From Candidatus Bathyarchaeota archaeon (GTDB taxonomy: Archaea; Thermoproteota; Bathyarchaeia; 40CM-2-53-6), in contig VBBQ01000030.1 in the NCBI GenBank assembly GCA_005888755.1, positions 68,085 to 132,084 of the forward strand: a stretch of 64,000 nt of DNA. The letters are read 5' to 3'. Shown in pieces: positions 22,647 through 57,270 of the stretch. A program made the position numbers and the translations under genes. The stretch's first letter is position 1. Every line of letters starts with the position of its first letter. A model generated the notes under the pieces. It did no database searches. It saw only the letters and a list, made by a program, of their open reading frames with translations, and was not told the origin of the DNA.

Positions 22647-24073
22647 AAGAGCACTGTGGCGTCCTCGCCATATATTCAATGGAGAAGCAGTCTGTCGCCG
22701 AGCGCATTGTCAAAGGACTCGCGGCACTACAGCACCGGGGCCAGGAGTCGTGGGGAATCGCCGTTCCCGGCGAGCCTATTCTCAAGGGCCTAGGCCTGAT
22801 AGGCCAGGGCGCGGATGCTAATGCGAAGAAGATTCTCAGCTTTACTAGCAATCGTGGAATAGGACATGTGCGCTACTCGACTCGCGGACGGACGACGTTA
22901 GAGAACGCGCATCCGCTCGACATTCGCGGCGAGTTCGCCATTGCCCAGAATGGGACTATCGCGAACACAGAGGATCTTGAGCCCATCGTGGAAAAAGAAT
23001 TTCCCATCTTAGGTTCTACGACAGACACGAAGCTCGCTGGATACCGTCTCCTCCAACACTACCGTGCTGAACACGACTGGACCCGTGCGTTCCACAAGCT
23101 GAGCAAAGAGCTGAGTGGCTCGTACAGCTTCGTCATGATAACCCATGACGGCGAGGTCTTGGCGGCTAGAGACGAGGCAGGCTATAGACCGCTCTGTCTT
23201 GGATACGATCCTGACACGGACACTCACATCGTGGCGAGCGAGAGTTGCGCCCTCACGGCTCTCCAGGCGGACTTTGTCAGGGATGTTCAACCTGGCGAGC
23301 TTGTCAGTTTGTCTGAAAACGGCCTCAAAATAACAAGATTTGCCGACTCACCACGCCACTACCACTGCCCGTTCGAGTACACATACTTCGGGCATCCCAG
23401 CAGTAGGATCGATGACCACTACGTTTACGACGCTAGACGAAAGCTCGGCAGAGTTCTCGCCCGAAAATACCCGTTCAAAGCCGATGTTGTAATTCCAGTC
23501 CCCGACTCCGCTAGACCAGCAGCCCTCGGCTATTCCGAGGAGAGCGGTATACCAATGGAGGAGGGTTTGATGAAAGACCGATACCGCAGAAAGGGAAGCC
23601 TCCGCAGCTTCATCGAGCCAACGGCCAAGAGCCGGGAAGAGATTGTCCGCGAGATCATCACCATCAAACCCGTCGTTGACGGCAAAGATGTCATTGTGGT
23701 CGATGACAGCATCGTTCGCGGAACTAGCAGCAGAAACATCGTCCAGTCCCTCCGCGACGCAGGGGCGAAAAAAGTCTTCATGGTCGTCACTTTCCCGCCC
23801 ATCCGGCACCCATGTTACATGGGCATCGATTTCCCGACACGGGAAGAGTTGCTTGCGAACAAAGCAGATGGCGAGACCCTCAACATCGCTGAACTCAACA
23901 AGAAAGTCGCGCGTGAAATCGGCGTCGACGGTCTCGGCTACAACGACATCAACGGTCTAAGTGAGGGAATAGGCCTCGGCAAAGACGAAATGTGTTTCGC
24001 ATGCGTCACCGGCGAGTATCTGGGTCTGAAGAAAGATCCTGTGCTTCGGACCCGGGAAGAAATGAAGGCCTAG
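22604..24073 (+). CDS. purF: Amidophosphoribosyltransferase PurF (Fe-S type). A short propeptide precedes the Cys, or the start is the TTG at 22643.
   Basis: (KEH)CGVLAIYS is the Ntn-nucleophile Cys. [13 protein letters not shown] is the PRTase motif. There is a C-terminal CFAC cluster ligand pair. The start overlaps the purL stop. Confidence 0.9.
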
Positions 24074-24080
24074 CCCAACA

Positions 24081-25382
24081 ATGCCGGGCCTGATAGGATT
24101 CTACACCTTCGGCGAAGGACGAGAAAACTGGGACGCGTCCCACTTCATCCACTACGGGCTTAGCGCCCTCCAAGGCCGAGGACAAGAATCCATCAGCTTA
24201 GCAACCATCGGACCGGGAAACACTCTACACACTCTCGGGGGAAAAGGAGGCGTCGAGGAATTCTTCCAGAAAAACAAGACAACCCTTCCAAAAGGTTTCA
24301 TTGGAATCGGACAAACATCCTCCTACGAGGATGACTATCTCGTCCACGTAAAAACGCCCTGCGAGCTAGCTCTCGCACTCGACGGAAAGACAGACCTCCA
24401 CGAAAACCGAGGCGAAGCCACCAGACTCTTCGCCCGACAACTCTCACAACTCCTCCACAGCGAGAAGGAACCCCTCAAAGCGACCTCGATGCTCATCAAC
24501 AAGATAGGAGGAGGCTACTCTTTCGTCGCCCTCACTCACAAACAAGAGCTCATCGCAGGAAGGAACCCGCTCGGAGTAAAACCGCTCGAAACTGGAAGCG
24601 TTGGTTTCGACATTGCAGCCGTCGCATCCGAAACCTGCGCCCTCGACGTGATGGGCATTGACAACACAGGACCAGTTGAAACCGGAGAAGTCATCATCCA
24701 CACCCCCGAGGATATTCGAGGAAACACACCCGCAAACAGCCCAAGTAGCTTCTGCAGCTACGAATACGTCTACCTCGCAAGACTCGACAGCAACGTCAAC
24801 ACTCTACCGGTAGCCAAGATCAGAAACAGCATCGGAAGAGAAATGGCGAAAGCTCATCCGGTCAAAGCTGACGTTGTAATCGGTGTTCCAGAGACTGCGC
24901 TCTCGATCGCCAACGGATACAGTCAGGAATCTGGCATTCCGGAGGAATTCGGCTTCATGCGGACCGGAGAGAATATTCGTGCAGCCCTCAAATCAACGCA
25001 GAAGGAACGTCTCCTGGGAGTCCAGCTCAAGCTCAACCCAATCAAGAGCGCGATCGAAGGCAAAGACATCGTATTGGTAGACGATAGCGTGGTCAGGGGA
25101 AATACTCTACAAAACACTGTCTTCAATCTCAAACGCAACGGCGCCCGACGAATACACGTCCGAATCGGAAGCCCAGCACTCGTCTCACCATGCCCCTACG
25201 GAGTCGAGATCCCGCCTAGGGATGAACTGGTTTCCGGCAACCTGAACGAGAAAGAACTCGCGAACACTGTAGGGGCGGACAGCATATCGTTCATGACCGT
25301 CGAAGAACTCCAGCACGCTATCGGCCTCCCAAGACAGAGTCTCTGCATGTGTTGTTTTGAGAAAGGAGCTGGGACACAATGA
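24081..25382 (+). CDS. PurF paralog lacking the N-terminal catalytic Cys (MPGLIGF...), with an intact PRTase domain
   Basis: It is collinear with PurF and keeps DIVLVDDSVVRGNT and a C-terminal CMCC. Position 1 is Pro rather than Cys. Confidence 0.8.
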   Translation: MPGLIGFYTFGEGRENWDASHFIHYGLSALQGRGQESISLATIGPGNTLHTLGGKGGVEEFFQKNKTTLPKGFIGIGQTSSYEDDYLVHVKTPCELALALDGKTDLHENRGEATRLFARQLSQLLHSEKEPLKATSMLINKIGGGYSFVALTHKQELIAGRNPLGVKPLETGSVGFDIAAVASETCALDVMGIDNTGPVETGEVIIHTPEDIRGNTPANSPSSFCSYEYVYLARLDSNVNTLPVAKIRNSIGREMAKAHPVKADVVIGVPETALSIANGYSQESGIPEEFGFMRTGENIRAALKSTQKERLLGVQLKLNPIKSAIEGKDIVLVDDSVVRGNTLQNTVFNLKRNGARRIHVRIGSPALVSPCPYGVEIPPRDELVSGNLNEKELANTVGADSISFMTVEELQHAIGLPRQSLCMCCFEKGAGTQ

Positions 25383-39477: not shown

Positions 39478-40248
39478 CTAGTTGGGCTGTGAGAGAGATC
39501 GTGCGGGTTCCGGAGGAACAGGCTCTATCGCTCTCATCCTGTAGGACTCTCTGGGATGCTGTTGCGGTCCTTTCGTTATCATACCGTCGCGCATTTCAAA
39601 CAGTCTCTCCGCTCGATCCGCGACCACTGGGTCGTGTGTGACGACTAGGACGGAAGCGTTCTCTTTCTTCGCTGACTCGTACATTATCTGAACTACCTCA
39701 GTGCCTGTCTTCGTGTCCAAGTCTCCTGTTGGTTCGTCGGCGAGGATGATTTTCGGGTGGTTTGCTAGGGCTCGGGCTATGGCAACCCGTTGTTGCTCTC
39801 CCCCGCTCAGTTCATCTGGGAGGTGCGTGAGGCGTTCTTTGAGGCCGACGCGCTCAAGCATCAAGCGGGCTCTTTCTTGGGCAGCTTTCGGTTTCACTCC
39901 GGCGGTTAGCAGAGGCAGTTCCACGTTTTCTAAGGCTGTCAGTACTGGTATGAGATTGTGAAACTGGAAGACGAAGCCGATCTTGTATCGCCTGAGCTTT
40001 GTGAGCTGACCATCCTTCATGCCAGTGATGTCGTCTCCGTCAATCAACACTTTCCCAGATGATGGTTTGTCCAGTGTTCCTATGATATTGAGGAGTGTCG
40101 TCTTTCCCGACCCCGAGGGTCCGGTTATGACTACGAACTCAGCCTGGTACAGGGTGAGGTTGACCCCGCGGAGCGCGTTCACCATGACGTTGCCTAGGCG
40201 ATATGTTTTCTCCAAGTTCGCAACTTGGACTACGGCAGGGGTTTCCAA
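39478..40248 (-). CDS. ABC transporter ATP-binding protein (MacB/LolD-like)
   Basis: Walker A is GPSGSGKTT. The signature is LSGGEQQRVAIARAL. Walker B is ILADEPTGDLD. Confidence 0.9.
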   Translation of the reverse strand: METPAVVQVANLEKTYRLGNVMVNALRGVNLTLYQAEFVVITGPSGSGKTTLLNIIGTLDKPSSGKVLIDGDDITGMKDGQLTKLRRYKIGFVFQFHNLIPVLTALENVELPLLTAGVKPKAAQERARLMLERVGLKERLTHLPDELSGGEQQRVAIARALANHPKIILADEPTGDLDTKTGTEVVQIMYESAKKENASVLVVTHDPVVADRAERLFEMRDGMITKGPQQHPRESYRMRAIEPVPPEPARSLSQPN

Positions 40249-43202: not shown

Positions 43203-44349
43203 TTAGAGAGCAGCGAGGAGTTTGTCGATTTCCTCCTCTGTATTGTAATAGTGGGGTGACGCACGCAGCGCGTGAACCCTGCTCGCGACCGTGATGTTCA
43301 ACTTCTTCAACCTCTCATATGTGGCTCCGGGCTCGGGGTCCTCGAAGACCACGATTCCGCTTCGCCTGTCAGATTGTAGTGGTGTCAGGATCTTGCGTCC
43401 TTTCTTCTTCAAACCCTCGATAAGATGTTCTGTGACTTTCAGGACTCTGTGGGACCTTTCAGCTTGGTCATGTTTCAACGCGAATTCCAAGGCGGCTTTG
43501 GCTTACTCCCCAACTTCCACCTTCAAACATCGTCGCGTCGGGCGCAGGTACTGTCTCTTCGATGTTGAACGGTTTTCCGAACAGGTCCTGCTGGCTTGTG
43601 AGTCTCCTAACAACGGAGTCTTGGACTCCGTGCCAGCCGACATAGTTCGGGTCCAGATCCTTCAGCCTGTCATGTTTCGTGTAGACAAAAGCCGCGCCGT
43701 GAGGTCCCTGCATCCACTTGTACATCCCGCAGACAAGCGCATCAACACCATCCTGTCGGACGTCGAGCGGGAAGACTCCGAGCGAGTGGAACGAGTCGGC
43801 TATGACAAAAGCATCGTGCTCGTGAGCGATCTTTGCAATCTCGCGAATCTTCTCTCTGCAACCGTTTGTCCACGAGACATAGTCGACGGAAACGATCGAG
43901 GTATCATCGTCGATCGCTTTCTCCCACTGTTCGAGTGGGATCGTGCCGTTTTGATCACGATGTAACAGTCGAACATCTTTCGCTCGGCCGTGTTTTTTCT
44001 GGAGGTGCCAGAGGTAGATGTTTGTGGGAAAGTTGAGCTCGCTGATAACAATGTTTCCGCTCGGTTTGTAGTGTAGGCTGCTTGCCAACGCTGTAAGCGC
44101 GCTAGTAACATTCGGGACAGATGCAACCTCATCCAACGCGGCTCCGCCGATCATTTTTCCGAAGAGCCGGCGAGATTCGATGATGAGTGGTAGCCATTCT
44201 TCCCAGTTCTCACCATACTCACGCCAGTCAGCCATGTACTCGTTGATCGCATTGAGTACCGGTATTGATGGCGGGCCTGTTCCAGCATTGTCGAAGTATG
44301 CTCTTCGAGAAGTGACCGGGATCTGTTTTCTTACAAGGTCGACGTTCAA
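43203..44349 (-). pseudogene. Class-V aminotransferase / cysteine-desulfurase-like gene split by a frameshift near 43470-43500
   Basis: ORF 43468-44349 carries the N-terminal and PLP domains (YFDNAGTGPP...). ORF 43203-43490 carries the conserved C-terminus (GIVVFEDPE...RASPHYYNTEEEIDKL). The two overlap by 23 nt in different frames. Confidence 0.75.
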
Positions 44350-44426
44350 AGAGACACCGTTCTCGTGCTAGAGGTTTGTTTCGAAACCGGGTATAAAGGC
44401 AGTTCTAAAAGATTGGAGGGTCCGAT

Positions 44427-44753
44427 CTAAATCTCGAGATCATCATCCCTGGGGTCACCGTAGAATTCTCTATGATTTGTCTTGTCGGAAAGACAGTTCT
44501 TACACCAGAACCGGTTCAGCTGGGGACTGTACTGGGCGTAGCTGTCGGTGACAATGTTTCCGCAATGGCCGCAACGGACGATGAGCACCTTTCGCAGTTT
44601 ATGGTTGGGTAAGTCCCTCCTGTGGCGTTCGATATCTGTGTCGCCGGGTTCGAGTACCATGTTACAGTTTTCACAATAGTAGATCGTGTCGAGAATCGCC
44701 TTGTCACGTTCGTCTACCCAGCCCTCAGCCAAGGTCCCAATAGTCGCCTCCAC
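44427..44753 (-). CDS. Small Cys-rich zinc-ribbon protein (108 aa)
   Basis: CENCN...CGHCGN...CKNC gives three CxxC pairs. Confidence 0.5.
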   Translation of the reverse strand: MEATIGTLAEGWVDERDKAILDTIYYCENCNMVLEPGDTDIERHRRDLPNHKLRKVLIVRCGHCGNIVTDSYAQYSPQLNRFWCKNCLSDKTNHREFYGDPRDDDLEI

Positions 44754-44942
44754 CTCAACTAGGTCTCGTCTGTGTTTGAAAAGCTGCGTTTTTCTTGCCT
44801 CGGGTTACCTTGAACAAAGCAATCGAGAATGCTGGTTCAGGAGAGCTCGGTGTTTCTCGGCATGTACGGAGCTTGCCTTCTCTCCCCCATCTTCCGATAA
44901 ACTTATACTGACAGTACCTCCTTCGCGATTTTCTGAAGAATC

Positions 44943-47813
44943 GTGCGGGCGAAAACGCCGATTCTAACTATCATCCTCACATTGACCATACTAACAGTCC
45001 TACCCAGCTCCCTGTCTTCGGGTCGCGCTGTAGCTCAGAGTGGTTTCACGCCATGGTCTCCATTCGGTCCCCAAGAAAAGAAGCTCATCATAACCGATTA
45101 TGGAGATCTCAACGGCATGTTAAACGCGTTCCAGAACGGACAGATCGATATCCCTGACTCTCCGCTGGGAGTCGCAGGCACCTCATCGTGTATTAATGCA
45201 AACTTCTTCTGTACCAGCCCAACCTCGGAATTCGGGATCTTTCAGCTAGACATCAACCACCGCATACCGTTCTTGGGAATTTCACTTCAAGAGAATCGAT
45301 CCGCTCCCCCTCCCTCGCTTATTCTGCCTGTTACCACAGGCCCAGGTTGTTCAGCAGGATTCGGCCAGTTAATCGTCCAACTTCGCAACCAGGAGCAGGG
45401 CAACGCGGTTATTCTTGACAGTCTGAACAAGTTGACTATCTCAAACCAGCCTAGCGGTTCGCCGTCAGCCACTGTAGGCGATTCTGGCGGAGTCAACCCG
45501 ACGGGCACCTATGTTTTCCCGTGCATCTTAGGCGGTACCTACGCGATCAGCTCCAGCGTCTATAACAGTAACTCTTCCTGTTCGTCCGTGACGCCGACGA
45601 TTTGTGTATCCGTCGGCGGCGGTCAAACTGTGACAACTACGCTCCTCGTAGATTGGAACAGTCCCAGCACGAAGCAACCGTCACAGGCAGGAGTCTACGT
45701 TGGACGTGCGCTTTCTCACCTCTTGGACAAGCCGAGCTTCATCCAGGGAGTGTTCGGGAATTTGGCAACGTTCGACGACGAACAAGTTGCTCCATCCCAG
45801 AATGTTCCCGGCCTCTTTTCGAACACGGCTGAGTGCTCCGATCATCTTTGGTTCAGTCCATGCAATCCGGTATCCGGGTACAACTTTGTCAGCGACAGCG
45901 TAGGTGGCGGTTCAGAATGGTGGACTCTCCCCGGCCAGGCGAACGGTGTCAGCTTGGGATATTCAGGCGTGTCTGATCTTAGAGCTGCTTGCGACGATTT
46001 TGTCAAGGCCGGCTTTACGGTTGTAGGTGGAGCAAATTCAACGGACTGCGGAGACGTCGCTCTGGCCTCTCAAGGCTCCGTCGCCCTCTCCACCTATGCA
46101 CACCTGGACAACAGGGGGCAACACGTGTTCAACGCGTGGAGGACAAACCAAGGACGAAAAGAATTCGGAATCATCCTTAGTGATACGATCAACTTTCTCT
46201 TCGGGACACCAAACAACGGTTGCACAGTTCTCTACTGGGGCACATCTTGTACGCCGAAGGGAGCAACATTCTCCCAGAGCCTTTGCGTCCTCCAGCAAGC
46301 CTGCGCGTGGAACATCTACCAGGGAGGCTGGGACCTAAGCCCCTTCCCGCAGCAACTATACGACGACTACCACAGCTCCTTCGGATCAAGCTTTTGCGGC
46401 GGTCCTCCAGTCGTAACCCTCGCAAACTACCCTGTATACTGCGATCCTGCGCTTGATACATATGCAGCGGCTGGAGAGTTCAGTCCCACCCTGCCCCAGT
46501 CTACCCAGTTCTTCGCCAAGGCTGCCGCGACAGGTACGTCAAATGGAATGACAGATCCAGCCTTCACGCGCATAGACCAATTCCTGGCTCTGAACGGCTG
46601 GAACTTCCAACAGTGCACCGGGTCCCCACCTCCATGCTTCTCACGGTCGAGTCTCGTCAACACTCTCGGCCGCGGATTCCTCGCTGGCTACGGGTACTGG
46701 TCACTGCTGAACATGCGGCAAGTGCCCGGTTATGTTCCGCCTAGTCCAGGGTTCGCTCCTGGAGGCGGGGATCCGGATCTGATTCGTCGAGGCTTCAGCC
46801 AGGACATCTTCAGCATGAGCCCGTTCCAGGCCTACACGAACACTGAAAGGGAGATTGTAAGCCTCCTCTACGACTCCCTGCTGCAAGCGAACCCGATGAC
46901 CGGAGGGGCAGATGGCCAGATCGTAGACTGGCAAACCATTGCCCACTCTTCCACTTTCAACCCGAGCGAAGTCTCATGCAACACCCTCAACGGTTGCATT
47001 ACCGGAACAACAACGTCCATTTGGCAGCTTAGGAATGATATCAAATTCCAAGACGGAACCCCGCTGACGGCGGATGATGTCGTTTACACAATTCTCTCCT
47101 TCAGAGATGTCCCGGCAATTTACTACCAATATCTTGTGAGTAGTGTTTCCAGTGCAACTGCGCTTAGCTCTCGCACTGTACAGATCAAACTACAAGGTCA
47201 GAGTGCCTTCGGAATGTCTGACCTGGGTTCCGTGCCAATAATCCCCCGCCACATCTGGGAGCCGGTCTGTGGTCCCATCGTGAACGGAGGTATCCCTGGC
47301 GGGTCGACATCTCCATGCGCGGATCCCACGTTTGATCCGATGGCTCAAGGCATCATGATCGGCGGCGGGCCTTGGCAGTGCATCGTGCCTGTCGGATTTC
47401 CTAACGCGGGTCACGTGGGAGGATCTTGCGTAGAGCCAGTCTGCCAACCGGCTTGCGTGGGAGGCCAAGTAGTCCAAATCGGCACAAAGATCCTGTTAAC
47501 ACGCTACGACGGGTTCGCCAGATGCTGCCCGGACGACACGTCCAGCAGTCTCTACAAGCTAAGCTGGGCCGACAAGAACAACGATGGAATCGTCAACATC
47601 CTCGACTTGGCAAATATCGCAGCTCATTACGGACAGCCAGATCCATACTGGGTCAACTCAAACATCGCCCCAGGATCAACGGTCAACGCCGTGGACCTTG
47701 CGACCGTTGCGATCTACTTTGGCCACGGAACCATCTATCCATTCCGACCCTTACAACTTACCGATTTGGACCCGCAAATAGATCCATTCTTCTGCCCCGC
47801 CACGGGATGTTAG
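44943..47813 (+). CDS. Secreted giant paralog A (956 aa). Signal peptide, Cys-rich N-terminal region, divergent SBP-family-5 (OppA/DppA-like) segment, C-terminal dockerin-type repeat.
   Basis: GTG start. Signal peptide with an AxA site. The block IWQLRNDIKFQDGTPLTADDVVYTI matches the SBP_bac_5 signature. GGGPWQCIVPVG is also present. The C-terminus ADKNNDGIVNILDLANIAAHYG is a DxNxDGxVNxxD dockerin/EF-hand-like repeat. Confidence 0.7.
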   Translation: MRAKTPILTIILTLTILTVLPSSLSSGRAVAQSGFTPWSPFGPQEKKLIITDYGDLNGMLNAFQNGQIDIPDSPLGVAGTSSCINANFFCTSPTSEFGIFQLDINHRIPFLGISLQENRSAPPPSLILPVTTGPGCSAGFGQLIVQLRNQEQGNAVILDSLNKLTISNQPSGSPSATVGDSGGVNPTGTYVFPCILGGTYAISSSVYNSNSSCSSVTPTICVSVGGGQTVTTTLLVDWNSPSTKQPSQAGVYVGRALSHLLDKPSFIQGVFGNLATFDDEQVAPSQNVPGLFSNTAECSDHLWFSPCNPVSGYNFVSDSVGGGSEWWTLPGQANGVSLGYSGVSDLRAACDDFVKAGFTVVGGANSTDCGDVALASQGSVALSTYAHLDNRGQHVFNAWRTNQGRKEFGIILSDTINFLFGTPNNGCTVLYWGTSCTPKGATFSQSLCVLQQACAWNIYQGGWDLSPFPQQLYDDYHSSFGSSFCGGPPVVTLANYPVYCDPALDTYAAAGEFSPTLPQSTQFFAKAAATGTSNGMTDPAFTRIDQFLALNGWNFQQCTGSPPPCFSRSSLVNTLGRGFLAGYGYWSLLNMRQVPGYVPPSPGFAPGGGDPDLIRRGFSQDIFSMSPFQAYTNTEREIVSLLYDSLLQANPMTGGADGQIVDWQTIAHSSTFNPSEVSCNTLNGCITGTTTSIWQLRNDIKFQDGTPLTADDVVYTILSFRDVPAIYYQYLVSSVSSATALSSRTVQIKLQGQSAFGMSDLGSVPIIPRHIWEPVCGPIVNGGIPGGSTSPCADPTFDPMAQGIMIGGGPWQCIVPVGFPNAGHVGGSCVEPVCQPACVGGQVVQIGTKILLTRYDGFARCCPDDTSSSLYKLSWADKNNDGIVNILDLANIAAHYGQPDPYWVNSNIAPGSTVNAVDLATVAIYFGHGTIYPFRPLQLTDLDPQIDPFFCPATGC

Positions 47814-47820
47814 AGACTTT

Positions 47821-50800
47821 TTGCTTAGGGTTCTCAGTCTAGCTGTGATTCTCAGTCTGTCTGTTCTTATGCTGTTGCCGGGAACGTATGCTCCGGTCCG
47901 TGCGCTCAGTCAGGCGTTCTATAGATTCTCGCCTTTCGGGCCTTTCACCCAGCAGTTGATCATCCACTTCTACTCAGACTTTGACGTTATGTTCTCTCAC
48001 TTCCAGCAGGGAGAGATCGACATCAGCGACTGGCAACTACAATCCCAGAACGCCATCAACACCTTCTGCAACAACGCCGACTTCTTCTGCACCTTGCCTC
48101 AGCCCGAGCTTGGTTATTTCGGGGAGCAGATTAACAATCATCCTTCGTTCATGGGGATTCCACTACGTCAAAACAGAACTATCAACCCAGCCTCGTTTAC
48201 CTCAACTAGCTCTGCGACAGGCTGCAATACTGGTTTCGGCTCGTTGATCATTACTCTCCTGAACCAGGAGACTAGCACGACTGTCCTAGACCCGCTGAAC
48301 ACTGTGACTGCAGCTAACCAACCGAGCGGTTCACCCTCCGTTACCTCTAGCGATTCTGGAGGAACAACTCCCAACGGTGTTTACGTTGTCCCGTGCATCC
48401 TTGCTGGAAACTATGCCCTCCGTTCAAGTGTTTACAATGGAACTGGGTCAGCTGGACCGGTCATTGTCAATATTGCCAGTGCAACAGTTACGAGTGGCAC
48501 CTTCAACGTCAACTGGAACAGTCCGAGCAACGTTCGGCCAACCCAAGCACGAGCGCTGTTCGGCGCTGCCATGGCCCACCTGCTGGACGACCCAGCGTTC
48601 GTCCGCACTGAATTGACAGGTGTGGCCGAATCGCCCTGCTCGTTCTGGGTTCCAGCACAAGGTGGAGCTTGTCCGACAGGCACTACCGCAGAATACCTGT
48701 GTCAGACCGCTCCGACGTTCTGTCCGACTGCAAATCCGGCAGGAGGTTTGCCAACTGAGGTCGATATTGCTGAATGTCAGTTCAACAATCACCCCTGGCT
48801 GAACGTTGTCGGCTGCTCACCCGATGCGACTGGACATGATGTCGGGCCCTACCACATCTCTGACAGCACCGTAACCGTGAAAACCAGTTTCTGGAATACA
48901 GGAACGCCATTCCTTGTCACGGGATATGCAGGATACGCTGGTCACGATGACTTGAGGGCCGCTTGCGACGATTTCCTCTCAATGGGTCTCACACTCTCAC
49001 CACCAACCGCCACATGCAACGACGTGGCTAACGCAGCCAGCCTAAACGCAGATCCCGGTGCCTATGCCCATTTCGTGCCCGCTGGAAGTGGACACATTTT
49101 GGACTTCATAAGAACGTCTATTGGAAGGCAACAGTCTGGCCAGATTATCGCTGACACGTTGAACTTTCTCTTCGGAACACCCCAGAACAGAGACACCCAG
49201 GCTGGATTTGTCGGCACCGTTTGCTATTTGTTGTGTCCTCAGTATACTCGACATTACTGCAGCTTCAGTTTTCAGTGTTCTCCAATCGTCTTCGAGGACA
49301 CGTCGCTCTCCGGGGGAAGCCCGGATGCCTGGCAACTATACACAGAGGGGCAAGGTTTTGATCCTACCCCCGACCAGTTTTTCATTAACAGAAACAGTGT
49401 TAACACGGGTCAAGTCTGTGCCGGTGTGCCCGTGTTCAAGCCGAACAACTACGAATTCTGGTGCGATCCCCAATCCGACACTTGGAGTAGCGCAGGGGAA
49501 TTCGCCCCCACAGCGACTTTGTCAGGGCAGTTCTTCCAAAGGAATATCCTAACCGAGCTCAACAACGCGGTGGACATTCCAGGCTTCTCATTCGTCGATA
49601 CTTTCGTTGAGAATAATGGCTGGAATTTCGCACAATGCAACGGAGTAGCGTGCCTCAACTCACAGTCGAGCATCGTCAACACCGTAGGCTTCGGCACGCA
49701 AGCCGGTGGAGCCTATTTCTCACTGCTGAACGCGAGACAGGTTCCGGGATACAATCCATGCTCTGTTCAAGGTGCTCCGGCCAATTGTGCTTCTTATGCT
49801 CCTGGAGGAGGTAACCCGAACATTATTCGTCGTGGCTTCTCGCAGGACACCAGTAATCTTAGTCCGTTCACGTTCAACAGCATCTGGGAAGGAGACGTGC
49901 TCAGCTCAATTTTTGACACAATGCTACAGCCGAATCCCAACACGGGCGGTGGAGGGGCCCAGTACATCGACTGGGGAACCACAAGACACAGTTCTTTCTT
50001 CAACCCGAATGAGGTTGGATGCAACTCGATTGTCGGATGTGCTACGGGTGTCACAACCCAGATCTGGCACTTACGGAACGACTGGAAGTTCTCGGACGGC
50101 AACGACGTTAAGGCGACTGACGTTGCTTACAGTATTATCGCCTATCGCGATGTACCCTCTTCCCTGCTGCAGAGCTATGTGCTAAACGTCGTCAGCGCTA
50201 CCGGTCTTGACTGCGGGCCGGGACAGACATGCAAGACGCTCCAAGTGAAGCTCCAGACCCAGTGTCAAAATCCACAGTTCTGCTCCTTCAGCTCACCTTC
50301 TCTTTTCGATTTCAACATCGGTGCCACTCAGTTTGTTCTCGAAAAGTCGCTATGGGCACCTTACTGCGGGGATCCGCCGGTTCCAAATGGAACCTGCGCT
50401 AGCCCAGTGTTCGACCCGATGTATCCAAGCGCTAATAGCCCGGGTATCGAGGTAGGACCAGGACCTTGGTCGTGCATTGCTCCGATATCTGGAACAGGCG
50501 TTTCAGCAGGCCACGTCGGTGGACCTTGCGCTGAAACCGCAGCTGGTGTCTTGACAGGCAGCGCAATCATAACCGACGGCAAGATTCTCTTGTCAGAGAA
50601 CACCAACTTTGCACGCTGCTGTCCAAACGGCCCTTCCGCACTCACAAGCTCTCTGTACAAGATCAGCTACGCGGATCACAATAACGATGGAGTGGTCAAC
50701 ATACTAGACTTAGCTGATGTCGCTTCGCACTTTGGAACAGCTGACCCGTACTGGGTCAACTCGAACATTGGATCAGGCACAACAGTCGGAGCAGAAGACC

Positions 50801-50916
50801 TCGCGACAGTGGCCATATACCTTGGACATGGCATAACCACACCATACACACCACAAACGCTCACTCTAGTCGACCCGCAGACAGATCCATTCTTCTGCCC
50901 TGCCACAGGGTGCTAG
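47821..50916 (+). CDS. Secreted giant paralog B (1031 aa), same architecture
   Basis: TTG start 7 nt after the stop of A. Signal peptide ...PVRA. IWHLRNDWKFSDGNDVKATDVAYSI. VGPGPWSCIAPISGTG. ADHNNDGVVNILDLADVASHFG. Confidence 0.7.
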   Translation: MLRVLSLAVILSLSVLMLLPGTYAPVRALSQAFYRFSPFGPFTQQLIIHFYSDFDVMFSHFQQGEIDISDWQLQSQNAINTFCNNADFFCTLPQPELGYFGEQINNHPSFMGIPLRQNRTINPASFTSTSSATGCNTGFGSLIITLLNQETSTTVLDPLNTVTAANQPSGSPSVTSSDSGGTTPNGVYVVPCILAGNYALRSSVYNGTGSAGPVIVNIASATVTSGTFNVNWNSPSNVRPTQARALFGAAMAHLLDDPAFVRTELTGVAESPCSFWVPAQGGACPTGTTAEYLCQTAPTFCPTANPAGGLPTEVDIAECQFNNHPWLNVVGCSPDATGHDVGPYHISDSTVTVKTSFWNTGTPFLVTGYAGYAGHDDLRAACDDFLSMGLTLSPPTATCNDVANAASLNADPGAYAHFVPAGSGHILDFIRTSIGRQQSGQIIADTLNFLFGTPQNRDTQAGFVGTVCYLLCPQYTRHYCSFSFQCSPIVFEDTSLSGGSPDAWQLYTEGQGFDPTPDQFFINRNSVNTGQVCAGVPVFKPNNYEFWCDPQSDTWSSAGEFAPTATLSGQFFQRNILTELNNAVDIPGFSFVDTFVENNGWNFAQCNGVACLNSQSSIVNTVGFGTQAGGAYFSLLNARQVPGYNPCSVQGAPANCASYAPGGGNPNIIRRGFSQDTSNLSPFTFNSIWEGDVLSSIFDTMLQPNPNTGGGGAQYIDWGTTRHSSFFNPNEVGCNSIVGCATGVTTQIWHLRNDWKFSDGNDVKATDVAYSIIAYRDVPSSLLQSYVLNVVSATGLDCGPGQTCKTLQVKLQTQCQNPQFCSFSSPSLFDFNIGATQFVLEKSLWAPYCGDPPVPNGTCASPVFDPMYPSANSPGIEVGPGPWSCIAPISGTGVSAGHVGGPCAETAAGVLTGSAIITDGKILLSENTNFARCCPNGPSALTSSLYKISYADHNNDGVVNILDLADVASHFGTADPYWVNSNIGSGTTVGAEDLATVAIYLGHGITTPYTPQTLTLVDPQTDPFFCPATGC

Positions 50917-50996
50917 AGACAGACATGGACGCTCCTCGAATGCTGCTTCCGATACACCTATTGGCGCAACACCCGTTGAGGAGCTGAGAAGGTTCT

Positions 50997-53900
50997 TTGT
51001 TTAAGGTTCTCAGTCTTGCGGTAGTTCTCAGTCTGTCAGTTCTTATGGTGTTGCCGGGAACCTACACTCCGGTCCGCGCGGTCAACCAGAATGGCCCCAC
51101 TCGCTTTTCGCCTTTCGGTCCTTTCACACAACAGATGATCATCCATTTCTACTCAGACTTCGACCCTGCGCTCTCAGCCTTCCAGCAAGGGCAGATAGAC
51201 ATCAGCGATTGGACTCTTCAATCCACAAGCCAGATCAACACATTTTGTAGCAACCCGGACTTCTACTGCACTTCACCCACAGGTCCGGGCGGATATTTTG
51301 GTCTAATGATTAACAATCACCCTTCATTTATGGGGATTCCACTCCTGCAACCTAGAACAGTAGGTCCCGTCTCGTTCACAACAACCAACACCACGCCCGG
51401 TTGCAGCACAGGCTTCGGCTCCCTGCAAATTACTCTCCGGAATCAGGAGACCGCTGCGACCATACTAGATTTCCTAAACATCCTAACTGTGCGTAATCAG
51501 CCGAGCGGTTCGCCGTCAGTAATGGTCAGCGACTCAGGGGGGTCCAGTCCGAACGGGGTCTACAAGGTTCCATGTATGCTCGCCGGCTCGTACTCCATCA
51601 TGAGTAGTGTCTACAACGCAACAGGTATCATAGTAACAGTTGCGGGGAGCACTATTAAGTCAGGCATTTTGAACGTCAACTGGAACAGTCCCAGCAGTCT
51701 CAAGACGACCCAGGCTAGAACTCTTCTCGGTGCCGCGATCGCCCATCTTATTGACGATCCGGCGTGGGTCAGCGGTGCCTTTGGAAGTACCGCCCTGGCA
51801 CCCTGCGCCAATGGCATCACCTCTCAGGGGATTGCATGTCCAACGGGGACCTCGACAATGTACCAAGGCGGGTTGGGGACACCTCCTCCGGGCGGCCCTG
51901 CCTCCCAGATCGATTTGGCGGAATGCCAGTTCAACAATCATCCTTGGCTTAACGTGGCTGGCTGCTCGCCAGGCGCGACAGGCCACAATATTGGTCCGTA
52001 CAATATTGCCGATGACAAGATCAGTGTCAGTTCCGAGTTCTGGAATACTGGAACGAGCTATGGCGGTCAAGGCTACTCTGGCCACGATGACCTGCAGGCA
52101 GCATGCGACGACTTTGTCAGTATGGGTCTAACACTTTCGCCTTCGACCGCGACCTGTAACGATGTTGCGAACGCTGCTACCGGAACAATAGACCCTGGTG
52201 CATATCCTCACATTGTGCCGAACGGGCAGATCAAGACATACATCAGAGTCAACTTCGGTAGACAACAGTCCGGTCAGGTTATCGCTGACACTCTGAACTT
52301 TCTCTTCGGCACTCCCCAGAACAGGGCTTCTCAGACTGGTTTCGTCGGAACCGTCTGTTATGACGCTCGGACAACCCCATGCACACAGTTCACGCCCAAG
52401 TACTACACGTTCTCACAGGTGACGCCAATCGTGTTCGAGGATACCGTTGCTTCAGGCGGCAGTCCGGATGCATGGCAGTTGTATACGGGATCGCACAGCG
52501 TCGGTTTCTTTCCTGCCGAGCAGTACTTCGTCAACCATAACAGCATTGGAACTGGTGGGATCTGTGCCGGTCAATCTGTCATTCATCCAGAAAACCCCGA
52601 ATTCTGGTGCGATCCGGAGACGGACACTTTTGGGAGTGCAGGAGAGTTCGCTCCGACGCTTAACCTCTCAGAACAGTTCTTTCAAACCGAACTGGTTTAC
52701 GAACTCAACAGGGCGGTGGATGTCCCTGCCTTTACCTTCGTAAATGCGTTCGTCGAAAACAATGGATGGAACTTCCAACAATGCACAAGCCAGTGCGCAA
52801 ATACACAGTCCAGCATTGTTAACACTGAGATGCAGGGCACAATAGCTGGCGGAGCATATTTCACACTGCTAAACGCGCGTCAGGTGCCCGGATACGATCC
52901 GTGCGCCTTGCCAGGTGCTCCAGTCAACTGCTCATCCTACAAGCCCGGAGGAGGCAATCCGAACCTCATCCGCAGAGGATTCTCCCAGGACACCTCTAAC
53001 CTCAGCCCGTTCACTTTCAACAGTCCATGGGAGGGAGAGATTGTATCCTCGATTTTTGACACAATGCTTCAACCGAATCCCAATGTGAGCGGATCCTCGC
53101 AACTCTTTGACTGGGGCACGATCAGCCACAGTTCCAGTTTCAACCCTAACGAGGTTGGATGCAACTCGATCAACGGATGTGTAACAGGTGTCACGACGCA
53201 GATCTGGCGCCTAAGGAACGATTGGAAATTCTCGGACGGAAATGATGTCAAGGCTACAGATGTTGCGTACAGTATCATAGCCAACCGGGATGTGCCATCG
53301 TCACTATTGCAAGTCTATGTGATAAACGTGGTAAGTGCAGTCGGTCTTGACTGCGCACCCGGACAACCATGTAAGACATTGCAAGTAAAGATTCAAGGCC
53401 AGAGCGCGTTGAACGATTTCAGCATCGGAGCCACACAGCTTGTCATCGAAAAGTCGTTGTGGGCACCGTCTTGCGGTGATCCGCCGGTTGCAGGCGGAGT
53501 ATGCGCCAGTCCAACCTTCGATCCGATGTATCCATCTGGAAACGCGCCCGGCATCATGGTTGGACCCGGCCCGTGGGCCTGTATCTCTCCGATAGCTGGT
53601 ACAGGCGTACCCGCGGGCCACATCGGAGGTCCCTGCTCTAGGGACGCCAGTGGAAAGTTAGTTGGAAGCGCGATAACCCTTGATGGAACAGTCCTCTTGT
53701 CGGAAAATACTAACTTTGTGCGTTGCTGTCCGAATGGTCCATCAGCGACCTCTAGCTCTCTATACAAGGTCAGCTATGCTGACCACAACAATGATGGAGT
53801 GGTCAACATACTCGACCTGGCAGATATTGCCTCGCACTATGGGACAGCTGACCCGTACTGGGTCAATCCAAATATTGCGTCAGGCACAACAGTCGGAGCA

Positions 53901-54023
53901 ATAGACTTGGCAACAGTAGCAATATATTTCGGTCACGGCATAACCGCCCCGTACACGCCACGAACCCTTACTCAGGTCGACCCGCAGATAGATCCTTTCT
54001 TCTGTCCCGCTACGGGTTGCTAG
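50997..54023 (+). CDS. Secreted giant paralog C (1008 aa), same architecture
   Basis: TTG start. About 75% identity to B and D over long blocks. IWRLRNDWKFSDGNDVKATDVAYSI. ADHNNDGVVNILDLADIASHYG. Confidence 0.7.
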   Translation: MFKVLSLAVVLSLSVLMVLPGTYTPVRAVNQNGPTRFSPFGPFTQQMIIHFYSDFDPALSAFQQGQIDISDWTLQSTSQINTFCSNPDFYCTSPTGPGGYFGLMINNHPSFMGIPLLQPRTVGPVSFTTTNTTPGCSTGFGSLQITLRNQETAATILDFLNILTVRNQPSGSPSVMVSDSGGSSPNGVYKVPCMLAGSYSIMSSVYNATGIIVTVAGSTIKSGILNVNWNSPSSLKTTQARTLLGAAIAHLIDDPAWVSGAFGSTALAPCANGITSQGIACPTGTSTMYQGGLGTPPPGGPASQIDLAECQFNNHPWLNVAGCSPGATGHNIGPYNIADDKISVSSEFWNTGTSYGGQGYSGHDDLQAACDDFVSMGLTLSPSTATCNDVANAATGTIDPGAYPHIVPNGQIKTYIRVNFGRQQSGQVIADTLNFLFGTPQNRASQTGFVGTVCYDARTTPCTQFTPKYYTFSQVTPIVFEDTVASGGSPDAWQLYTGSHSVGFFPAEQYFVNHNSIGTGGICAGQSVIHPENPEFWCDPETDTFGSAGEFAPTLNLSEQFFQTELVYELNRAVDVPAFTFVNAFVENNGWNFQQCTSQCANTQSSIVNTEMQGTIAGGAYFTLLNARQVPGYDPCALPGAPVNCSSYKPGGGNPNLIRRGFSQDTSNLSPFTFNSPWEGEIVSSIFDTMLQPNPNVSGSSQLFDWGTISHSSSFNPNEVGCNSINGCVTGVTTQIWRLRNDWKFSDGNDVKATDVAYSIIANRDVPSSLLQVYVINVVSAVGLDCAPGQPCKTLQVKIQGQSALNDFSIGATQLVIEKSLWAPSCGDPPVAGGVCASPTFDPMYPSGNAPGIMVGPGPWACISPIAGTGVPAGHIGGPCSRDASGKLVGSAITLDGTVLLSENTNFVRCCPNGPSATSSSLYKVSYADHNNDGVVNILDLADIASHYGTADPYWVNPNIASGTTVGAIDLATVAIYFGHGITAPYTPRTLTQVDPQIDPFFCPATGC

Positions 54024-54106
54024 GGACAGATGTGGACATCTCTCGAACGCTCTTTTTTCAGATAGACTTATACCCTCGCGACTTGCTCGCCTCCTGAGAA
54101 GACTCT

Positions 54107-57100
54107 TTGTTCAGGGTTCTCAGTCTTGCGATAGTTCTCAGTCTGTCTGTTCTTATGGTGTTGCCGGGAACCTATACTCCGGTTCGCGCGATCAACCAGA
54201 CTAATCCCTTACGTTTTTCGCCCTTCGGGCCTTTCACGCAGCAGATGATCATTCATTTTTACTCAGACTTCACCGTGATGTTCCAGCATTTCCAGCTGGG
54301 AGAAATCGACATCAGTGACTGGCCTCTACAATCCAGTGCCGACATCAGCACTTTCTGCTCTAACGCTGACTTCTTCTGTACGAGCCCTCAACCTCAGCTC
54401 GGATATTTCGGGCAGGAACTCAATAGCCATACTCCGTTTATGGGAATCGCGCTGACACAAGCAAGGACTACCAGTCCACCCTCGTACACCACAACCTCTA
54501 CTGCAGCAGGCTGCAGCAGTGGTTTCGGCTCGTTGACCGTTACTGTACGGAATCAGGAGACCAGTTCGATCGTGTTAGACTCACTGAACGCTTTGACCGT
54601 CGCCAACCAACCGAGCGGGTCACCATCGGCAACCGTTAGCGACTCAGGAGGATCAACTCCAAACGGCGTGTACAACATTCCATGTATCCTCGCTGGGACC
54701 TACAGCCTTAGATCCAGCGTCTATAATGCCACCGGCACTACCGTGGCCATTGGTAGTGCAACGACTACCTCAGGCACTCTTAATGCCAACTGGAACAGTC
54801 CGAGTAATGTGAGGCCAACTAGGAACAGAGCGCTCCTCGGCGCTGCGATAGCTCACTTGCTTGATGACCCAGAGTTTGTTTCCAGCACTTTCGGTCCCGT
54901 AGCCTCCGCACCTTGCGCTTTCATGGTTCTCGCGCAAGGACAGGTCTGTCCAACCGGTACAACAAGTTCATACCAGTGCCTTCTCCCACCATTAGCTACT
55001 CCCGCACCCTGTCCAGCATTGAATCCTCTGGGCGGTGCCGCTACGCAGAATGATAATGCTGAATGCCAGTTTGGTAATCACCTCTGGCTGAATGTGATCG
55101 GATGCGCCTCAGGCGCGACCGGCCACGACCTCGGCCCCTACAACGTTGGTGACGACAGAGTGAACGTCAACGCTCGATTCTGGAACACCGGAGCTTTCGG
55201 CGTCGTCCAAGGTTATTCCGGCCACGACGACTTGCGAGCTGCGTGTGACGATCTCGTTTCAATGGGTCTCACGCTCTCGCCCTCAACCGCCACCTGTAAC
55301 GATGTGGCAAATGCGGCTGACCTGACCACGGACCCAGGCACATACGCGCACATCGTGCCTGCCGGGGATGGTCACATCAAATACTACATCAGGTCCAACT
55401 TTGGAAGACAACAGTTCGGCCAGGTCATCGCCGACACTTTGAACTACCTCTTTGGAACCCCTCAGAACAGAGCTGCTCAGACAGGTTTTGTCGGCACCGT
55501 CTGCTATGGTCAGTGTCCTCAGTACACTCCAAGGTACTACACCTTTACCCAGGTGCAGAGTTGCGTCTTTGCGGACACCCCGGCCTCCGGGGGCAGCCCA
55601 GATTGTTGGCAGCTATACACGGCGGGGCAGGGCTTCGACCCGACAGCAGACCAGTACTACCTGAACAGAAACAGCATTCAAACTGGCACCATCTGTGCCG
55701 GCGTGGCTGCGTTCAAGCCGAATAACTACGACTTCTGGTGCGATCCGCAGACAGACACTGACAGCAACGCGGGTGAGTTCTCCGCAACATTGGCTATCTC
55801 AGGGCAGTTCTTCCAGAGAGCGCTCCTCGATGAGCTCAACAACGCGGTTAGCATCCCAGGCTTCTCCTTCGTTGACACTTTCGCTGAGAACAACGGCTTC
55901 AACCTCCAACAATGCACCACACAGTGCTCACCCACTCAGTCGAGTATAGTCAATACCGTAGGCTTCGGCACGCTGGCGGGAAGTGCTTACTACACGTTGC
56001 TGAACGCTCGTCAGGTTCCGGGATATACGGCTCACGTCGCGGCGTACCAACCTATTCCCGGTTTGATTCGCAGAGGCTTCTCGCAGGACACTAGCAATCT
56101 CAGCCCGTTCACGTTCAACAGCGTATGGGAAGGTGATGTGCTCGCCGATATTTACGACACAATGCTCAGCCCTGATCCTAACACAAGTGGTGGGAACACC
56201 CAGTTCATCGATTGGGGAACAACCAGCCACAGTTCTCGCTTCAACGCCAACGAGCTTGGATGCAACTCTATCAACGGATGCTCTATCGGAGTCACTACAC
56301 AAATCTGGCACATACGCAACGACTGGAAGTTTTCCGACGGCAATGATGTCAAGGCTAGTGACGTAGCCTACAGTATTATAGCGTACCGAGACGTGCCATC
56401 TTCCTTGTTACAAGGCTACGTGGTAAACGTAGTCAGTGCTTTCGGTCTCGACTGCGGTGCCGGGCAACCATGCAAGACACTGCAGGTTAAACTGCAAGGC
56501 CAGAGCTCACTGTTCGAATACAACATCGGAGCCACTCAATACGTCCTTGAAAAGTCGTTGTGGGCACCGTACTGCGGAGACCCACCAATTCCAGGTGGGA
56601 CCTGTGCCAGCCCCTTGTTCGATCCCATGTATCCAAGCGCTAATAGTCCGGGTATTGAGGTAGGACCAGGTCCTTGGTCGTGCATTGCTCCGATATCTGG
56701 AACAGGCGTATCAGCAGGCCATGTTGGTGGTCCATGTGCTGAGACATCGACTGCCTTGACAGGGGGAGCAATAACGCGCGACGGCAGAATTCTCCTTCAG
56801 GCGAACACGTTCAACGCTCGATGTTGTCCAACCGGACCAACCTCTACCGGCAGCTCTCTGTACAGGATCAGCTATGCGGATCACAACAATGATGGTGTCG
56901 TCAACATACTAGACCTAGCTGATGTTGCCTCGCATTACGGAACTACTGACTCGTATTGGGTCAACCCGAACATTGCGACAGGCAGCACAGTCGGAGCTGT
57001 AGACCTGGCAACTGTAGCAATATACTTCGGACACGGCACAACCACGCCATTCGCTCCCGAAACGCTCTTTCAAGTCGACCCACAAGTCGACCCATTCTTC

Positions 57101-57121
57101 TGCCCAAGCAACGGCTGCTAA
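54107..57121 (+). CDS. Secreted giant paralog D (1004 aa), same architecture
   Basis: TTG start. IWHIRNDWKFSDGNDVKASDVAYSI. ADHNNDGVVNILDLADVASHYG. It lacks the Cys-containing loop that B and C have after GYNPCS/GYDPCA. Confidence 0.7.
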   Translation: MFRVLSLAIVLSLSVLMVLPGTYTPVRAINQTNPLRFSPFGPFTQQMIIHFYSDFTVMFQHFQLGEIDISDWPLQSSADISTFCSNADFFCTSPQPQLGYFGQELNSHTPFMGIALTQARTTSPPSYTTTSTAAGCSSGFGSLTVTVRNQETSSIVLDSLNALTVANQPSGSPSATVSDSGGSTPNGVYNIPCILAGTYSLRSSVYNATGTTVAIGSATTTSGTLNANWNSPSNVRPTRNRALLGAAIAHLLDDPEFVSSTFGPVASAPCAFMVLAQGQVCPTGTTSSYQCLLPPLATPAPCPALNPLGGAATQNDNAECQFGNHLWLNVIGCASGATGHDLGPYNVGDDRVNVNARFWNTGAFGVVQGYSGHDDLRAACDDLVSMGLTLSPSTATCNDVANAADLTTDPGTYAHIVPAGDGHIKYYIRSNFGRQQFGQVIADTLNYLFGTPQNRAAQTGFVGTVCYGQCPQYTPRYYTFTQVQSCVFADTPASGGSPDCWQLYTAGQGFDPTADQYYLNRNSIQTGTICAGVAAFKPNNYDFWCDPQTDTDSNAGEFSATLAISGQFFQRALLDELNNAVSIPGFSFVDTFAENNGFNLQQCTTQCSPTQSSIVNTVGFGTLAGSAYYTLLNARQVPGYTAHVAAYQPIPGLIRRGFSQDTSNLSPFTFNSVWEGDVLADIYDTMLSPDPNTSGGNTQFIDWGTTSHSSRFNANELGCNSINGCSIGVTTQIWHIRNDWKFSDGNDVKASDVAYSIIAYRDVPSSLLQGYVVNVVSAFGLDCGAGQPCKTLQVKLQGQSSLFEYNIGATQYVLEKSLWAPYCGDPPIPGGTCASPLFDPMYPSANSPGIEVGPGPWSCIAPISGTGVSAGHVGGPCAETSTALTGGAITRDGRILLQANTFNARCCPTGPTSTGSSLYRISYADHNNDGVVNILDLADVASHYGTTDSYWVNPNIATGSTVGAVDLATVAIYFGHGTTTPFAPETLFQVDPQVDPFFCPSNGC

Positions 57122-57270
57122 TGATTCCGGAAATCTTCCACTAGATTCCGCTCTTTCTTTCCCGGATAGACCGATCCGTATCACCTCTCCATGGCCCATG
57201 ATCCTATGCGAGGCTGAAACGCGACGTTTACAAGGCCTCGACGATCAACTGACGGATTCAGTGTTCCTGA

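Follow-up and report, generated by a model that had tools for sequence, protein, structure and literature searches.

A tandem array of circularly permuted OppA-class substrate-binding proteins with dockerin-like ends in a Bathyarchaeota archaeon

Here we describe four consecutive paralogous genes, A to D, in a 64-kb stretch of DNA from Candidatus Bathyarchaeota archaeon (contig VBBQ01000030.1; the whole stretch of 64,000 nucleotides is called the window below). Between positions 44943 and 57121 the forward strand carries exactly four long intact open reading frames (ORFs) (table 1), at the very coordinates and with the common layout that a first-pass annotation, made from the sequence alone, had given them. 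Our analysis identifies their products as substrate-binding proteins (SBPs) of the OppA/DppA/NikA class (cluster C; Pfam SBP_bac_5, SBP5 for short) that are secreted, disulfide-rich, and circularly permuted so that the two halves of the fold follow each other in swapped order, and that end in what profile comparisons identify as a divergent dockerin. We hold this overall architecture with high confidence. The function that we propose for it, a receptor tethered to the archaeal cell surface through its dockerin and delivering ligand to an Opp-type ABC importer, has in our estimate a probability of about 0.6.

The relationship to SBP family 5, already recognized in the first-pass annotation, is directly visible in one paralogue and secured through the family profile, at the sequence level, in the other three. 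Against PF00496 (SBP_bac_5; gathering score 32.4 bits, profile length 368) A scores 48.7 bits, above the cut-off, and B, C, and D score 26.1, 26.4, and 23.1 bits, below it; the match lies at residues ~690-790 and covers profile positions 16-100 only (in B, positions 17-59 at residues 745-787). A search of NCBIfam returned no family for B-D and, for A, only matches at E ~0.05-0.2 (NikA, OppA). The order of the two halves emerges from wider comparisons. When the family profile was compared with the PDB, DppA residues 432-490 fell at family positions 503-565 and SBP5 residues 8-150 at positions 620-790. With hhalign, against a profile of E. coli DppA, OppA, NikA, GsiB, and YejA, the C-terminal third aligned to DppA 26-238 (probability 95% (94.8%), E 5e-8) and the N-terminal part, once its inserted β-sandwich was excised, to DppA 233-520 (probability 40%, E 2.9e-4); the two halves are complementary, with almost no overlap and with the classic motifs aligned, and the linker between them in B falls opposite the signal-peptide region of DppA. 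A hidden Markov model (HMM) of the five E. coli proteins, run against 197 family proteins, matched both halves (an early HMM region at or below position 200 and a late one at or above it) in 36, and the late region came first in the protein in 36/36, the canonical order being found in 0/36. Individual members tell the same: in P0136, HMM positions 444-509 are closely followed by positions 35-160, and in the distant member P0100, Pfam SBP_bac_5 positions 140-232 lie at residues 30-158.

Predicted structures point the same way. An AlphaFold2 model of B, built from a 40-sequence family alignment (predicted local distance difference test score, pLDDT, 76.5; predicted template modelling score, pTM, 0.79), matched SBP5 proteins only in a Foldseek search, over ~200 columns, and displays the bilobed α/β fold of the OppA/DppA type; the canonical chain order (N-lobe domains I/II, C-lobe domain III, return to the N-lobe) is swapped in these proteins by the alignments above, and the linker has the lowest internal pLDDT of the full-length model (47-67). 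Five independent lines bear on the permutation, and the decisive test among them was modelling residues 36-610 of B alone, a segment without any Pfam signature: the prediction is confident (pLDDT 85.9, pTM 0.86) and covers three short PDB chains, 3pam, 3lvu, and 3o6p, almost completely. The N-terminal ~600 residues are therefore predicted to form the normally second half of the fold. The first-pass annotation had left the choice between a circular permutation and a large novel N-terminal module; profile comparisons and predicted structures together retain the former, with both SBP5 halves present in swapped order, and discard the latter. The layout would fit an origin by duplication followed by truncation. 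We also considered an S-layer or adhesin protein as the main identity and rejected it: the top structural matches are all SBPs, and the resemblance to pilin/adhesin domains found by structure search is confined to the inserted β-sandwich of B. Cysteines and the linker account for two further claims of the first-pass annotation, each half right. Each protein holds 30-36 Cys, and the alignment has 28 Cys columns common to B-D and 22 common to A-D, so that the at least 25 conserved Cys claimed for the array stand for B-D only. The Cys-containing loop said to have been lost from D (C...C, before RRGFSQD) is present in B and C and missing from D, as claimed, but A lacks it as well, and it lies within the permutation linker. 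The family is large, with 853 clusters at 50% identity at E <=0.001 and 153 at E <=1e-30; in many shorter members the match to the family profile does not begin until about position 230.

The C-terminal module is, as judged from profiles, a divergent dockerin with a degenerate second repeat, much as the first-pass annotation had it (a type-I dockerin-like terminus). A profile of the C-terminal 62 residues of 22 family members (profile A3) was compared with the PDB, and its 8 best matches were all dockerins, at E 1.9e-4 to 0.05. Several of these span both repeats; 2vn5_B aligned to profile positions 1-53, with homology over both duplicated segments. Loop 1 of B, DHNNDGVVNILD, is canonical, with all Ca-ligand positions present; loop 2 follows the pattern N-x-N-I-A-x-G-x-T-V-N-x-x-D, two residues longer and without the acidic residue at position 5. 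In the AlphaFold2 model one helix follows each loop (residues 961-969 and 991-999 of B; pLDDT 72-88). The dockerin is also the most conserved segment of the B-type paralogues, with a mean identity of 80% vs 61-75% in other segments of the mature proteins.

At their N-termini, the four proteins carry a hydrophobic stretch that is the only segment of each with a Kyte-Doolittle value of at least 1.6, followed by VRA or AVA, so that export with cleavage of a signal peptide may be expected in all of them. The same scan, over the whole proteins, found no C-terminal membrane anchor in A-D. The extreme C-termini (47769-47813, 50872-50916, 53979-54023, and 57077-57121) share a strongly conserved DPQ(I/V)DPFFCPxTGC end in which Cys is the last residue; some relatives have an extra domain of ~90 residues in its place. 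This end might form a small disulfide loop or act as a signal for processing.

Table 1. Positions of the array genes and of the modules assigned to their products (window coordinates).
Feature	Position	Strand	Assignment
Paralogue A	44943..47813	+	ORF, 956 aa; diverged first member of the array; Pfam SBP_bac_5 48.7 bits at residues 689-770
Paralogue B	47821..50916	+	ORF, 1031 aa; protein chosen for modelling
Paralogue C	50997..54023	+	ORF, 1008 aa; 70-71% identity to B and D; dN/dS 0.09-0.10
Paralogue D	54107..57121	+	ORF, 1004 aa; 73% identity to B, 76% to the Opp-adjacent SBP of locus L016
B, signal peptide region, residues 1-35	47821..47925	+	MLRVLSLAVILSLSVLMLLPGTYAPVRA, then a likely cleavage site, placed from an AxA-like motif
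B, residues 36-600	47926..49620	+	canonically second SBP5 part (DppA ~233-520): hinge strand/helix, C-lobe, returning C-terminal strands
B, inserted all-β sandwich, residues ~98-231	48112..48513	+	absent from canonical SBP5
B, permutation linker, residues ~601-664	49621..49812	+	from old C-terminus (...LLNARQVPGY) to old N-terminus (...IIRRGFSQD); length varies among paralogues
B, SBP5 N-lobe, residues ~665-940	49813..50640	+	canonical domains I/II (DppA ~26-238); carries the IWHLRNDWKFSDGNDVKATDVAYSI signature
A, dockerin-like module, residues 873-934	47559..47744	+	aligned in profile A3; profile matches to solved dockerins; no Pfam match alone
B, dockerin-like module, residues 948-1009	50662..50847	+	profile A3 vs PDB; Pfam Dockerin_1 14.1 bits, below cut-off
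C, dockerin-like module, residues 925-986	53769..53954	+	profile A3; Pfam Dockerin_1 12.2 bits, below cut-off
D, dockerin-like module, residues 921-982	56867..57052	+	profile A3; Pfam Dockerin_1 13.7 bits, below cut-off

The array copies are old duplicates under purifying selection, because among B, C, and D the ratio of nonsynonymous to synonymous substitution rates (dN/dS) is 0.09-0.14 at a dS of 1.3-2.5. The repeated duplication proposed in the first-pass annotation is thus right, and it is not recent; the drift in ligand specificity that the annotation coupled with it may have taken place. At the protein level B, C, and D share 70-73% mutual identity, a little under the ~75% first estimated, and A is indeed much more diverged (46-48% to B-D). 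The DNA of the four copies is 60-88% identical, and no long identical tracts occur among them. In an independent forest-soil assembly (ENA ERZ1758404, locus L015) four paralogues are flanked by the same two genes, for an aminotransferase and a DRG GTPase, and therefore the copy number, for which the first-pass annotation had asked for confirmation by long reads, is not an artefact of assembly; A is orthologous to the first array gene of that locus (65% identity). A local departure was seen at the 5' ends: over the initial ~59 codons of B, C, and D (47821-47997, 50997-51173, and 54107-54283, the signal-peptide region) dS is 0.46-0.65, vs 1.3-2.5 gene-wide, and the 7-13 nt upstream of the three genes are also alike (repeat families D11 and D12). 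Gene conversion at the 5' end, or constraint on translation or export signals, would be possible explanations.

The proposed function rests largely on relatives. A conserved gene cluster recurs in loci L002, L003, L004, L005, L012, L013/L014, L016, and L017, in the order cohesin-like protein (~320 aa), Dockerin_1 protein (~1150 aa), family SBP, PKD protein (~700 aa), cohesin-PKD protein with a transmembrane (TM) helix (~460 aa), a second family SBP, OppB, OppC, OppD, and OppF. The ~1150-aa protein has a bona fide Dockerin_1 domain (up to 46 bits) and weak β-propeller matches. The ~460-aa protein consists of a signal peptide, a cohesin (PF00963, 28.6-42.7 bits; cut-off 24.1), PKD, a C-terminal TM helix, and an RRRR tail; cohesin-PKD genes adjoin family members in every related non-array locus examined. 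In six loci a family SBP gene is directly followed by an Opp-type permease gene: L005 and L012 have the complete set OppB-OppC-OppD-OppF, L013/L014 show OppB-OppC-OppD before the locus breaks off, and L004, L016, and L017 show OppB alone. L003 ends ahead of any permease gene, and in L002 two unassigned small ORFs come after the second SBP. By neighbour-joining, B, C, and D of the window group with the Opp-adjacent SBP of L016 (69-76% identity; 75-76% to B and D). Each cohesin protein of the related loci has one cohesin, and no multi-cohesin scaffoldin was found among those examined, in a comparison that covers loci, not whole genomes. Such single-cohesin, TM-anchored proteins look, from their domain content, like a membrane tether and not like a large multi-cohesin scaffold. 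The expectation of the first-pass annotation that a cohesin partner is encoded elsewhere in the genome is borne out so far as cohesin genes lie directly upstream of relatives up to 75-76% identical to B and D; the window itself has none, and the scaffold that was to carry the cohesin finds no counterpart in these single-cohesin proteins with their C-terminal TM anchors. Two further features of the related loci deserve mention. L001:227-2224 encodes, upstream of a family SBP, a 665-aa protein with a cohesin-PKD N-terminal part and a C-terminal dockerin, an adaptor-like arrangement and a hint that cohesin-dockerin assembly may have two or more layers. The OppC proteins of the associated transporters (L005:14415-15830; also L012 and L013) are 441-471 aa long, with an extracytoplasmic insertion of ~200 residues between the first two TM segments in all three loci; this insertion may be an adaptation to a giant tethered receptor.

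Archaea have no periplasm. Their SBPs are normally membrane-associated, by C-terminal TM segments or lipid anchors (PMC3387779). We propose a dockerin-cohesin tether for A-D because they combine a dockerin with the lack of a TM or lipid anchor, and because their relatives adjoin a TM-anchored cohesin stalk and an Opp permease. The chain opens with the hinge strand and helix whose canonical place is near residue 235, continues through the C-lobe, with its inserted β-sandwich and Cys-rich loops, up to the old C-terminus, and then passes through a linker of ~60 residues to the old N-terminus and the N-lobe, leaving the dockerin at the new C-terminus. After Sec export and cleavage of the signal peptide, the dockerin of each paralogue would plug into a membrane-anchored cohesin-PKD stalk, a non-covalent tether that would keep the SBP at the cell surface near the importer; the tethered SBP would close on its ligand and pass the ligand on to an Opp-type ABC importer whose genes lie outside the window. 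The array may then supply four extra "orphan" SBPs that widen the substrate range of one importer, their conserved dockerin serving a shared anchor. Binding, tethering, and transport are all read here from domain content and gene neighbourhood. As to the ligand class, there is a weak hint, and we lean slightly to oligosaccharides, since dockerin-bearing partners in the clusters (L013:6240-9689, L012:1910-5371, L004:2667-6095, and L016:4831-6108) give weak BNR, GH43, or β-propeller matches, a TrmB-family regulator (L012:20015-20776) follows the Opp genes, and Opp-class systems in archaea often carry sugars.

Several observations weigh against this interpretation. For the permutation, the sequence evidence for the N-terminal part is by itself modest (the hhalign probability of 40%), and the lines of evidence are independent but individually partial, the structures among them being predicted and not solved. 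For the dockerin, the gathering score of PF00404 (Dockerin_1; 22.9 bits) is not reached: B-D score 12-14 bits, through the first repeat only, A has no match, and loop 2 of B, NSNIGSGTTVGAED, is longer and degenerate. The hydrophobic N-terminus might also stay uncleaved and serve as a signal anchor, and a dockerin tether would then not be needed. Finally, tblastn with the OppB/C/D/F, cohesin-PKD, PKD, and dockerin proteins of the related loci detected no Opp permease, Opp-type ATPase, or cohesin gene in the window, the sole match being an unrelated MacB-type ABC ATPase (39478-40248); the absence of OppBCDF genes next to the array, already seen at first pass, thus extends to all 64 kb, and a cohesin and an Opp permease in the source genome are extrapolated from other metagenomic contigs.

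These points leave room for other explanations. The best surviving one, which we regard as unlikely, is that A-D capture ligands or mediate adhesion as parts of a cohesin-dockerin assembly outside the cell, either similar to a cellulosome or fixed to the S-layer, with no handover to an ABC importer. The window without a permease would suit it, as would the unusual size of the proteins, their extra pilin/adhesin-like β-sandwich, and the several dockerin and cohesin proteins of the related loci, one of which bears both modules (L001). The first-pass annotation had preferred such an assembly to classical importer SBPs, a preference that the related loci go against. In six of them the next gene after a family member encodes an Opp-type permease, and the close homologue of B and D (75-76% identity) is among these cases; the cohesin proteins combine one cohesin, not several, with a membrane anchor. 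Orphan SBP genes serving a distant permease are also common, the oppA paralogues of Borrelia being an example. It is rather improbable that the proteins are importer SBPs held by an uncleaved N-terminal signal anchor, their dockerin-like module being a Ca-binding element that stabilizes or oligomerizes them with no cohesin partner. The hydrophobic helix is their sole TM-like segment, and the degenerate loop 2, the sub-threshold Pfam scores, and the window without a cohesin gene would all agree with this; the AxA-type motifs that follow the hydrophobic core (VRA, AVA), as in cleaved Sec signals, the cohesin genes beside family members in the non-array loci, and the high conservation of the dockerin argue against it. 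Last, a novel, non-SBP N-terminal region of ~600 residues joined to a truncated SBP5 fragment might be read from the short Pfam match (positions 16-100 only) and from the artificially re-permuted A, B, and C, whose SBP_bac_5 scores and coverage were unchanged, the C-lobe being too diverged and insertion-rich for comparison of a single sequence with an HMM, and an assembly artefact or decaying pseudogenes might be considered alongside; the swapped order in all informative family members, the intact ORFs, a dN/dS of ~0.1, the 60-88% DNA identity, and the four copies of L015 make all of these very improbable, and assembly artefact was rejected outright. Tethering through the dockerin, with delivery to an Opp importer, is the reading that we retain.

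The array appears to be a lineage-specific insertion of ~12.9 kb, because sites without it exist in L018 (a 1.05-Mb Bathyarchaeia contig) and L019, where the array is absent between the aminotransferase and GTPase genes and the flanking synteny is kept. In the comparison (44350-57270), the order of MacB-type ABC, RNase H-like, rhomboid, UbiA, GATase, and aminotransferase genes on one side is preserved, as is that of DRG GTPase, aspartokinase, homoserine dehydrogenase, and threonine synthase beyond the array site. The flanks, among them a DRG-type GTPase with a TGS domain, a UbiA prenyltransferase, and purine-synthesis genes, are archaeal in look; the named homologues of the DRG GTPase at 83-86% identity come from Candidatus Bathyarchaeia/Bathyarchaeota and from one metagenome-assembled genome (MAG) labelled Dormibacteraeota. 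Similarly, family members in the species-representative genome set belong to soil Bathyarchaeota MAGs and to one MAG labelled "bacterium". In public records (P0039, P0247, L001, and L003) the family or the DRG GTPase is labelled "Candidatus Dormibacteraeota bacterium" or "bacterium"; these labels are probably binning or labelling errors, given the archaeal look of the gene content. A class-V aminotransferase gene immediately upstream of the array (43206-44349, reverse strand) is split by a frameshift near 43502-43504: its alignment to the L019 orthologue uses frame -2 for residues 12-292 of the latter and switches to frame -3 for residues 298-396, which may reflect either a pseudogene or a sequencing error. 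Elsewhere in the window, two adjacent PurF-like genes (22604-24073 and 24081-25382; glutamine amidotransferase and phosphoribosyltransferase) lie within the purine-biosynthesis cluster, and tRNA and Rfam scans of the window gave nothing.

How do these proteins compare with known systems? Relative to other cluster C/SBP_bac_5 proteins (OppA, DppA, NikA, AppA, or T. kodakarensis OppA, 7fi3), they have their halves swapped, are about twice the usual size, and are distinguished by an inserted β-sandwich, 30-36 Cys, and a terminal dockerin that takes the place of the lipid or TM anchor. For natural circular permutation among ABC SBPs there is a precedent in TpMglB-2 (Tp0684) of Treponema pallidum, a permuted cluster B ("Bc") protein whose homologues of that topology were noted to occur mostly in organisms with a probably tethered SBP (PMC4990184). 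The tether at the new terminus is a parallel; yet TpMglB-2 is a sugar-binding cluster B/type I lipoprotein of ~400 aa, and it does not share its origin with the array family. In anaerobic methanotrophic (ANME) archaea, OppA/NikA- and TroA-type SBPs with dockerins were reported, and dockerin-cohesin attachment of functional proteins to the cell surface was proposed (PMC9012536). Our proposal shares that idea and the domain combination; the ANME report concerns domain co-occurrence only, without a permutation or a cluster of cohesin anchor, SBP, and OppBCDF, and its organisms are Halobacterota, not Bathyarchaeia (PMC9012536). As in the cellulosome and in the cohesin and dockerin of Archaeoglobus fulgidus, the module has duplicated F-hand segments, the first with a D-x-N-x-D-G-x-x-x-x-x-D loop, and cohesin domains above the Pfam threshold are encoded in genes that adjoin those of the relatives. 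Unlike in the cellulosome, the cargo at the related loci is a transport receptor and not a glycoside hydrolase, no multi-cohesin scaffoldin is found there, a single-cohesin PKD stalk with a C-terminal TM helix takes the place of SLH (S-layer homology) or sortase anchors, and loop 2 of the array dockerins is degenerate. In several bacteria, SBP paralogues share one Opp permease, some being encoded elsewhere (OppA1-5 of Borrelia, streptococcal AmiA/AliA/AliB), presumably to broaden the substrate range. By analogy the array proteins may do likewise, unlike these in sharing a permease through a common dockerin-cohesin anchor.

In the searchable literature we found no permuted cluster C SBP and no conserved cluster of cohesin anchor, dockerin-SBP, and OppBCDF; searches on dockerin-tethered or permuted SBPs and on Bathyarchaeota dockerins returned only the ANME remark and TpMglB-2, and those on soil transporters of Bathyarchaeia nothing relevant. 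Permuted ABC SBPs are there represented by one cluster B family only (PMC4990184), and the array family would extend them to cluster C. Dockerin-SBP, TM-anchored cohesin-PKD, and OppBCDF together provide a concrete gene set for the surface-tether idea, hitherto drawn from domain co-occurrence in ANME archaea. A permuted scaffold with its termini at the hinge may also be of interest for the design of SBP-based biosensors. Tentatively, and with more doubt than conviction, we suggest that soil Bathyarchaeia might operate a cohesin-dockerin "uptake-some" on the cell surface, in which interchangeable permuted OppA-like receptors of differing specificity (among them the four array proteins, with their common conserved dockerin), a common membrane-anchored cohesin-PKD stalk, and one Opp permease would work alongside dockerin β-propeller (possibly glycosidase) proteins, the permutation having been selected as the shift of the terminus would leave cleft closure and permease docking unhindered by the tether. 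If true, these archaea would have their own equivalent of systems that couple the breakdown of polymers to import. Overall, the array would represent an expanded nutrient-capture repertoire in uncultured soil Bathyarchaeia, a group whose substrates are debated.

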